From Octopus vulgaris (taxonomy: Eukaryota): a DNA stretch of 64,000 nucleotides. The notes below the pieces were generated by a model that saw nothing but the letters and a program-made list of their open reading frames with translations, was not told where the DNA came from and searched no databases. The position numbers and the translations under genes are program-made. Numbering within the stretch: the first letter of the stretch is position 1; each line of letters opens with the position of its first letter. This document shows positions 57,693 through 60,682 of the stretch, in pieces. Where the stretch lies: assembly GCA_951406725.2 (NCBI GenBank), contig OX597836.1:2356001-2420000 (forward strand), read 5' to 3'.

Positions 57693-58294
57693 TGGAAATC
57701 TATGAGCATGAACATATTGAAGAGATTAATGCAAAATATTATTGTGCAATCGTTTTAGATGAGATAAACGTTTGTGCAGTTTGTAGTTTGACATTTGCAG
57801 TTTGCTTCGGCTGCACGTCGGAAGGCTTAAATCAACAATCTCGAAAGATGATAGTTTGCACAAACACGATATAAGCATCGATGCAATATTCAATATGTTT
57901 AACATTCATAAACTAATCGTTTAGAAACATTGAAAGGATCAACGCCTGGCAAATCGTTCGAAATGAAAAGGAAAGCCAAAAAAAAAAAAAAGAAAAAAAG
58001 AAAAGGATATTTTCGAAATATTCCAAATGCTTATCATTGAAAAATCAACGCCTTTCTCTTATTATTTTAACATGGGCTTCTATCTGCCTGCACGCGCGTG
58101 TGTATGTGTCTGTGTATGTACATAGACAATAAGTGAGCTAGATATGCTCAGTGTAGAACACAGATAGTAATGCTCAAATGAATTTGAGCATAAACCTGAG
58201 TCCTTAATGCGGTACTCGGCTTAAGGCGTCCTGAGTAGCTATAGGAGTAGTCACAATATTTGGATTCCAGTAATGCGGCAGTACTCATAGAAAA

Positions 58295-58558
58295 AGTGGA
58301 GGCGCGTGGCTTAATGGTTAGGGTGTTAGCATCATGAGCGTAAGATTGTGGTTTCGATTCCTGGACCAGGCGACGCATTGTGTTCTTCAGAAAAACACTT
58401 CATTTCACGTTGCTCCAGTCCACTCAGCTGGCAAAAATGAGTAACGCTGCGATGGACTGGCGTCCCGTCCAGCTGGGGAACACATACGCCATAGAAACCG
58501 GGAAACCGGGCCCATGAGACTGGCTAGGCTTTAAAAGGGCGCATTTATTTTTGTATTT
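58295..58558 (+). mobile_element. tRNA-derived SINE (family B head, alternative 3' tail) with 13-bp TSD
   Basis: Direct repeat tactcatagaaaa at 58282-58294 and 58559-58571; head shared with 21780-22100. Confidence 0.9.
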
Positions 58559-59034
58559 TACTCATAGAAAAGCTCGTAAACTTATCATCCTAAAAAACAT
58601 ATATCAAGGAAGATATTTAAGTAATGTATTCATCATAAAATATAAGTTATTTGAAAGGTTGAGAGTTACGAAACAAATATGTCGTAATTATAGAATTTTT
58701 CTAATTGATAAATAAAAGTTGATCAAAATAGTTCTCTCTCATTTATGATTATAGTATTTCAGAATCCAAAATATTCCATTTGGGGAAGACATAAATAACT
58801 CGAACAATGCAACAATGTAGTCTCAGCAACGTATTATTCTACACACGTTTATTTGTGTCCAACGGGTTTTACTTGCAGGTGACAGGCGAAACACCATCCA
58901 TTATTCACCTCTTGAAGAAAATCGGGATTACTATGAAGAGCAGCCTCGGGAGTTTCAAATAGCATTGTTTACTTTTAATCTGTAGAAAGACGATATGTTA
59001 AAAATATGTACATCGAACATAAACCATGTGTAAT

Positions 59035-59115
<81 letters not shown>

Positions 59116-59143
59116 CTATGTATATATATATATTACAGCAAAA

Positions 59144-59220
59144 TTTTATATAGAGTTACCCAAGGTTTCGCACCCACAAATCCAAAGCCTTGTGGACAGC
59201 TCGTCAGACTCTATATAAAA
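59144..59220 (-). ncRNA. Type I hammerhead ribozyme with canonical core and long stems I and II
   Basis: UUUUAUAUAGAGU-CUGACGA-GCuGUCCACAAG...UUUGUGGGUGC-GAA-ACCuugGGU-A/ACUCUAUAUAAAA: 13-bp stem I, GUA triplet. Confidence 0.85.
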
Positions 59221-59916
59221 CAAAAGCTCAAAATATCCACGTCGCAGACGTGAGGAAGCGCTCACAGGTCGAGGAATATGAAAAACGTTAATGAGTTACG
59301 GTTTTTTCCCCTTAATCAGAGAAGAAAATAACATTCCTTTATTAACTCGGAGAAGCATAACAAGCCAATAGGGAGATCCAATTTTCTAGTAGGTGTCATC
59401 TGAAGAGGATATATTTAGAGAACAATTTTTTGAAGCCCACCTGTAGCATTCGAAAAATACTTCCAACTATGTTAGTTTAACAAAATATTCCTCCCAGTGT
59501 TTGTAAAATTATTCTTAAAGTGAAAGACAATACTTCCCAGATCGAGATGGGAACGACAAAGGCTTCACCAGCCTGCTCTACTATGTTGCAAACAAGGATA
59601 GTGTTATGTAATTAATCAGATTGTCTCCAGAAGCCATAAACTTCGTCGCTCCAGTTTTGAGAATTAGAATCGGAAAAGGCCGCAGTGCATTGTGAGGGAG
59701 GGGTGAGTAGAGTCTTGTTCTCAAGTTGACTCACCCTCAGCCACGACTATAATACTTGTACTGGTGGTTATCCTAGTAATAACGAAAGACAGAGGCCTGG
59801 ACTGAGAAACACACAATCTCTAGCATTTCCCTCTCGAATTCTCCCCCTCTCTATCTATCTCTCTCTTTCACTTTTTTGCGTCTCTAACTGTCGCTGTCTC
59901 TCTCGCTGTAGACATG

Positions 59917-60022: not shown

Positions 60023-60070
<48 letters not shown>

Positions 60071-60129
60071 TAACTGCCTTAGACATAGAAGTACAGACTG
60101 GAATATAATACAGAGTATTTGTGACAAAG

Positions 60130-60560
60130 CAGAGTGAACACGTGACGCAAGACCGACAAATATGAAGGAGTGATGTTTGCAGAGGCCAGAGCCCATGGAT
60201 CACTAAACCTTAGATTTATGAAAGCTCTGAAGAAGGCCAAACACGACATTAAGACCATTGAAAAGCCAAGGAGATCCATCAGATCACAATTATGTATGTT
60301 GTCCCCCATTGAGAATAGCATATGCACCAATGATAAGTGTATGGTATGTAAGATTAACCCTGGCATTAACTGTAGAATTAAAAACGTAGACTACAGCATA
60401 AGGGGCATAGAGGGTGCTTGTAAAACATGAACATAAAATACATAGGGGCTAGATGGACATTTGAGATAATATGACGACATGATGCAGTTCTCCATACTCT
60501 ACCAACAAGCCAAGGACCACCATAGAGGCAACCTGGGTCATCTTGACATCCGCATTTTAT
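60130..60560 (+). pseudogene. Decayed C-terminal fragment of a second PLE lineage (linker, Cys knuckle, start of GIY-YIG)
   Basis: VMFAEA...IKTIEKPRRSIRSQL..LSP...CTNDKCMVC.....NCRIKNVDYSI....CK, then frameshifted NIKYIG. Confidence 0.6.
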
Positions 60561-60682
60561 ACACGCACCCGAAGTACCCAACTCTCAGACAGGAGTGCAT
60601 ACTCATAAATGATACATCCTCAATACAAAATAGGAAATATACGTAGTAAGTAGTCATACACCTACACCCATTGTTTATATAT

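Follow-up and report, generated by a model that had tools for sequence, protein, structure and literature searches.

Known hammerheads of Penelope-like elements

Hydra-clade Penelope-like elements (PLEs) are described, in the available parts of PMC8557442, as elements of less than 3 kb with (TA)n targets and canonical hammerheads. The clade is defined there by the RWK and DKT motifs, the absence of CCHH, a CxCX5C linker, and CxxC and CxH around conserved E and N. Its hammerheads have a short, near-palindromic stem III (PMC8557442, File S2, available part). The metazoan PLE hammerheads were reported to have low, dimer-dependent activity, and transcript trimming and circles were proposed in the accessible text of PMC4209133. 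In the anole Poseidon PLE, according to the accessible part of PMC11167929, the tail is set by two internal RT starts, RNA that has not been processed serves as the main template, and cutting by the hammerhead requires the protein of the element. What PLE hammerheads do is treated as an open question in the same parts of PMC8557442 and PMC11167929. A paper on the repeats of Octopus vulgaris mentions PLEs, and neither Hydra nor ribozymes, in its available part (PMC13282606).

A hammerhead was studied in the window, i.e., the whole stretch of 64,000 nucleotides (64 kb) of Octopus vulgaris DNA that was analysed. The hammerhead very probably belongs to the 3' end of a Hydra-clade retroelement, of which the window contains an old, 5'-truncated copy that was likely written into (TA)n by the element's own endonuclease (EN) and RT from uncut RNA.

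The window family was compared with Hydra-1_Obim and the Hydra clade as given in the available parts of PMC8557442. They share the C-terminal GIY-YIG without CCHH, the motifs, the length below 3 kb, and (TA)n. In both, the hammerhead is of type I, lies near the 3' end, and has a short, near-palindromic stem III. The Hydra-1_Obim hammerhead has another sequence in the same layout. The stems are longer in the window family, i.e., 9 bp in stem I and up to 13 bp plus a bulge in stem II, whereas those of File S2 are mostly 4-7 bp. The pLTRs seen in the window family were listed as a difference. The two halves of GIY-YIG are separated by ~125 residues in the window family and by ~20 in Hydra-1_Obim. 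The separating residues are of low complexity and rich in Ser, Thr, and Asp, and were found in L121 (open frame), L003, L061, and L064; the spacing is ~15 in P0008/P0035.

The metazoan PLE hammerheads (PMC4209133, accessible text) have in common with the window family the type I form, the location in the pLTR, a long helix II, the G10.1-C11.1 pair, and a palindromic helix III region, and most copies are dispersed as truncated singles. The D. virilis variant resembles the window motif in its helix II bulge and small helix III. Helix I is longer in the window family, i.e., 9-13 bp against 2-5, and cleavage is here a prediction. With the anole Poseidon PLE (PMC11167929, accessible part), the family shares two RT start sites downstream of the hammerhead, optional tails, and the copying of uncut RNA. 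The tail is ~60 nt in the window family and 30-40 nt in the anole element. The window family also differs in that both ends lie in target-like AT-rich sequence, in its clade, and in an ORF that starts well after the ribozyme.

The hammerhead at 59220-59144

A complete type I hammerhead was read from the sequence of the minus strand at 59220-59144. Stem I has 13 Watson-Crick pairs, formed by a 5' strand at 59208..59220 (structural descriptor and copy comparison; 9 pairs in the family) and a 3' strand at 59144..59156 (fold and descriptor). The catalytic core CUGACGA occupies 59201..59207. Stem-loop II, located by descriptor and alignment at 59170..59200, has 11 pairs, three of them G-U, with one bulged base near the stem base and a loop of 8 nt. 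The apical stem II pair at 59181, present in the family, was lost in this copy. The segment 59157..59169 holds GAA (59169-59167), the near-palindromic stem III (59166-59158; three pairs, ACC/GGU, loop UUG), and the GUA cleavage triplet. As A17 is 59157, the predicted cut lies between 59157 and 59156, after GUA. A short tail (59132..59143) leads to a proximal 3' end site ~25 nt past the cut, and (TA)n begins 11-12 nt past stem I. The initial annotation of this DNA had described a canonical minus-strand hammerhead with a 13-bp stem I, a stem II of ~11 bp, an ACC-uug-GGU stem III, the same cut position, and (TA)n ~12 nt past stem I, and each of these points was recovered.

The CUGANGA core, GAA, an NUH triplet, and the A15.1-U16.1 pair of type I hammerheads were all present. 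Three helices with the open end in helix I were found and are backed by covariation. On these features, 59220-59144 is a canonical type I hammerhead, and self-cleavage is predicted.

The 86-nt hammerhead fold gave z = -3.04, and 0/200 shuffles were equally stable. The structural descriptor had 59220-59144 as its sole match in the 64-kb window and matched 0/200 Markov-shuffled windows. The descriptor demands that the base of stem II be paired; hence, it is blind to another hammerhead at 53.5 kb, where this pair is lacking. In the monomer ensemble, the pairing of stem I was certain, that of stem II had a probability of ~0.6, and that of stem III ~0.06; the predicted minimum-energy fold differs from the active hammerhead fold. 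The 9-nt stem III segment as a self-duplex gave -8.2 kcal/mol, with 8/9 positions paired. A search with a hammerhead model had been proposed as a check by the initial annotation and gave no such match: Rfam returned no hammerhead family for 59125-59400 up to E=10. For the whole window, only microsatellite-driven miRNA matches were seen among 150 listed of 270. The Rfam miss is likely due to the long stem II.

The second hammerhead, at 53546-53600 (minus strand), is also of canonical type I and lies in an island of ~100 bp between TA arrays. It has an 8-bp stem I, a short stem II, a long-looped 4-bp stem III, and GUA, and a long imperfect palindrome (53357-53465) adjoins the island. The two hammerheads had been annotated as unrelated in sequence, and their best local alignment was 13 nt with a score of 16. 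On the plus strand, another island between TA arrays was observed at 60066-60660, with a decayed 94-codon frame (60146-60430) containing Cys pairs. By its motifs, we take this frame to look like the end of an endonuclease from a different Penelope-like family. A repeat at 58290-58545, which we assume to be tRNA-like and SINE-looking, recurs in the flanks of several loci.

Conservation of the fold was examined across subfamilies. The EN search gave 17203 candidates, of which 150 were scored, and 70 loci were examined, i.e., the 30 best and 40 chosen at 47-59% identity. The core pattern matched 33/70 loci. Three were dropped as spurious, mis-anchored, or carrying a deletion, and the other 30 with the window copy made 31 rows. 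In these rows, picked by the core pattern and with figures inflated by relatedness, 83.6% of cells were paired, 39 cells were double-changed, and the score was 0.300, each reached by 0/500 shuffles. Slid-control alignments had 31-47% of cells paired. Double changes were found in 5/7 pairs of helix I and 3/11 pairs of helix II, including clear swaps in stem I (two pairs, from A-U to G-C) and in stem II (from C-G to U-A). Helix III was 92.5% paired with no double change, and the A15.1-U16.1 pair was found in 31/31 of the rows so picked. Two covariation measures based on counts of pairs or types were no better than the shuffles (443/500 and 445/500), and RNAalifold gave no consensus pairs on the 31 rows. 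Because the stems pair and covary across sister subfamilies, the alignment indicates that the hammerhead fold was kept under selection while the subfamilies diverged. The initial annotation had made its reading depend on conserved paralogues, and such paralogues were found.

The long stem I was not general. The 13-bp form occurred in 1/58 measurable copies (of 64) and the family's 9 pairs in 9, and at most 7 pairs were common to all subfamilies. The 13-bp stem arises from a C-to-U change at 59217. The long stems of the initial annotation, for which loop-stem tertiary contacts had been considered, are real in this copy, but the 13-bp stem I is copy-specific and the family stem is 9 bp. No support was obtained for loop-stem contacts such as the loop I/II tertiary contact seen in natural hammerheads that are fast: both loop II and the distal part of stem I differ from one subfamily to another.

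The host element and its copies

In the own genome (2.8 Gb in 227 contigs), the DNA search returned at least 428 candidates, of which 40 were scored, with 43 matches at 78-90%. Exact genome copies numbered 44 for a 19-nt core stretch (control 0) and 10 for a 29-nt stretch (control 0). The sister copies have a common 3' end, and their 5' ends are scattered from ~140 to >2700 nt upstream. Because the sisters share the 3' end yet begin at varied upstream points, the window copy is read as 5'-truncated. An upstream walk gave a 2.76-kb body encoding RT and then, at the C-terminus, a GIY-YIG endonuclease, i.e., by motif order, a single RT and GIY-YIG frame in a body below 3 kb. In L172 and L062, a 5' pLTR (EN end, hammerhead, and tail) runs into the 5' UTR and ORF, and L063 has an inverted 5' piece. 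Both the pLTR-ORF-pLTR order and the inverted 5' pieces are standard for PLEs. Each of the six long copies examined was broken, and an intact element was not encountered. Of 64 copies, in a sample biased toward the window copy, 11 retained the full core together with stem III.

Two inverted hammerhead pieces within one insertion, a known PLE arrangement, were observed at L010, L013, L015, L030, L058, L092, and L095. The own genome also has at least four related subfamilies of Hydra elements (L131-L170), each with its own covarying hammerhead and with GUA and GUC triplets among them.

The clade was assigned from the decayed long copies. The N-terminal RWK was found in 2/6 of them, DKT or DKS at the expected place in 5/6, and CxCX5C in 3/6 and in L121. 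The YRDD motif was present, CCHH was absent, and CxxC and CxH were found in L065 and L007. The pLTR or inverted 5' pieces, the canonical hammerhead, and the (TA)n target are also as expected for the Hydra clade. In the open RT stretch of L062, 55/71 residues were identical, counted by eye, to the published sequence of Hydra-1_Obim of Octopus bimaculoides. The protein search with the RT stretch gave 1449 proteins whose E was at most 0.001. Two full-length matches carry the same motifs, and one of them matches the family EN at E 1e-22. Pfam found no RT and no GIY-YIG in the decayed ORF pieces, and RVT_1 was seen weakly in 1/7 homologues (E 3e-4, below the cut-off); the Hydra clade is hardly detected by Pfam. 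Neptune and Naiad were rejected as candidates. The CX2-5CxxC linker, the CCHH within GIY-YIG, and the N-terminal Naiad EN, as defined in the available parts of PMC8557442, were not found. The host element is therefore assigned, on motifs and the by-eye comparison, to the Hydra-clade PLEs. The initial annotation had set the motif apart from PLE hammerheads; this contrast was mistaken, and the motif is the pLTR hammerhead of such an element.

The window copy is the 3' end, equivalent to a pLTR, of this element. It covers ~300 bp of the minus strand (59131..59431) with ~76-81% identity to sister copies, which extend upstream into EN and RT. The limit of 59290 given earlier was too short, as the sister copies place the start at 59431. 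At 59357..59431, the GIY-YIG endonuclease frame survives as its last ~25 codons in decayed form (L001 frame 2 compared with L002, L008, and L007), with one in-frame stop and Tyr at the position of the family stop codon. The 3' untranslated region, from the ORF end to the hammerhead, was located by copy comparison at 59221..59356. This span is 105-240 nt in relatives, and the hammerhead of the window copy lies ~150 nt past the decayed EN end. The tail sequence at 59132-59143 continues into the 5' UTR in full elements. The insertion target is a (TA)n-(TG)n-(TA)n microsatellite at 59036..59131, and TA targets are typical of the Hydra clade. The copy has no RT and is most likely inert. Three DNA runs, from two studies and with three organism labels, yielded contigs that bridge its 5' junction at 96-98% identity. 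The insertion is therefore shared with related organisms, old, and fixed. In the alignment, copies were ~9-11% from the family majority.

The 3' ends of the 64 copies were bimodal. The proximal site, ~25 nt past the cut, was used in 34/64 and a distal site, ~60 nt further, in 23/64; by alignment, three were between the sites, one was beyond, and three were unplaced. By eye, most 3' ends adjoin (TA)n or (CA)n. Both classes include sequence past the cut; therefore, uncut (or re-joined) RNA was copied. Copies starting at the cut site were found in 0/25 loci with the 5' UTR or ORF start, a count of low power as few are full-length. Following published PLE work, the GIY-YIG domain would nick (TA)n. 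Of two internal start sites on the RNA, ~25 and ~85 nt beyond the cut site, the RT would then use the proximal one, copy through the intact ribozyme, and come to a stop after 300 nt. The ribozyme of active ancestors probably served to trim transcripts that were tandem or read-through. It would have cut slowly, as a dimer through the near-palindromic stem III or with the help of the element's protein.

Other origins of the motif were considered. A chance fold in AT-rich sequence fits a stem I that is partly AT-rich and near a microsatellite, and it fits the lack of an Rfam match. This origin is practically negligible in view of the descriptor result in shuffled windows, the conservation across the family, and the compensatory changes. 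A non-autonomous retrozyme or SINE-like element making self-cut circular RNA would agree with the dominance of short copies, most without RT, and such elements derive from PLE pLTRs (bioRxiv 10.64898/2026.07.22.740005, available text). The non-LTR retrozymes of that work share the type I hammerhead and the PLE pLTR origin with the window family. However, they are non-coding tandem units with one hammerhead per unit, whereas the window copy comes from a coding element and is truncated; it is monomeric and begins inside the EN frame. The 5' ends of the family are not fixed and range from ~140 to >2700 nt upstream, and among the loci compared, none had a short unit arrayed head to tail. A retrozyme is extremely improbable on these grounds.

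It was also weighed whether the host kept the PLE-derived hammerhead to serve some function at this locus, which is very improbable. The ribozyme of the window copy was off the family majority at 2/77 sites, against 36/207 upstream (Fisher p = 6e-4), a better preservation than simple decay would lead one to expect. Its core is wholly intact, as in just 11/64 copies, and orthologous contigs have family-state bases at several upstream sites that are changed in the window copy. However, the low divergence of the ribozyme can be explained by the selection of an intact copy among hundreds, which is how this copy was picked. Other copies are equally intact (lowest 1.3%), and one apical stem II pair is broken. 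The orthologous contigs span only 31 nt of the ribozyme, and the locus is without an established host gene context. The preferred reading is the old, truncated Hydra-clade copy with its own hammerhead.

Possible splicing, expression, and meaning of the family

A tentative and rather unlikely idea is that the GU of the cleavage triplet doubles as the 5' splice site of a 49-62-nt 5' UTR intron, which would end at a conserved pyrimidine tract and YAG. In 37 long-tailed copies of several subfamilies, the distance from this GU to a conserved downstream block was 45-64 nt, with modes at 49 and 56-60; the pattern used for this count presupposes the GU in part. The span, of varying length, ends in YAG after a pyrimidine tract in 28/37 of the copies. 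5' UTR introns are known in PLEs (PMC8557442, available parts), and the D. virilis PLE intron overlaps helix I (PMC4209133, accessible text). A 3' splice site of the D. virilis kind, within the 5' strand of stem I, was rejected, as AG is missing in the most distant subfamily. The own-genome search, of low power, gave no spliced retrocopies, and no spliced read was found. One exact junction-like match, at L171, arose by chance within a sister-subfamily copy that is unspliced. The literature searched, including the available part of PMC7761336, gave no 5' splice site at a hammerhead cut triplet; most subscription papers and preprint supplements were outside the reach of this search.

No RNA run was listed for the sequence. 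In one presumed RNA run, short contigs covered the hammerhead. They were mostly 90-95% alike, and because of this they probably come from other copies. A 41-codon stretch after a polypyrimidine-AG was observed at 58861-58985 (plus strand) and could be a host exon. It had no Pfam match, and no contig was found over the 58560-59030 flank in four runs.

If the splice idea is true, the cut site and stem I's 3' strand would be spliced out, which would give a cleavage-proof mRNA. Unspliced RNA would be both the insertion template and the ribozyme substrate, and such a splice-or-cut switch would give the PLE hammerheads a role. The family is a new sister family of the published octopus Hydra-clade element, and this kind of element and its hammerhead were already known. 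As it stands, the significance is small, i.e., a sister family is added and past selection on the hammerhead is confirmed. The copies are old, and the family offers testable natural variants with long stems, a two-site tail, and a possible overlap with a splice site.
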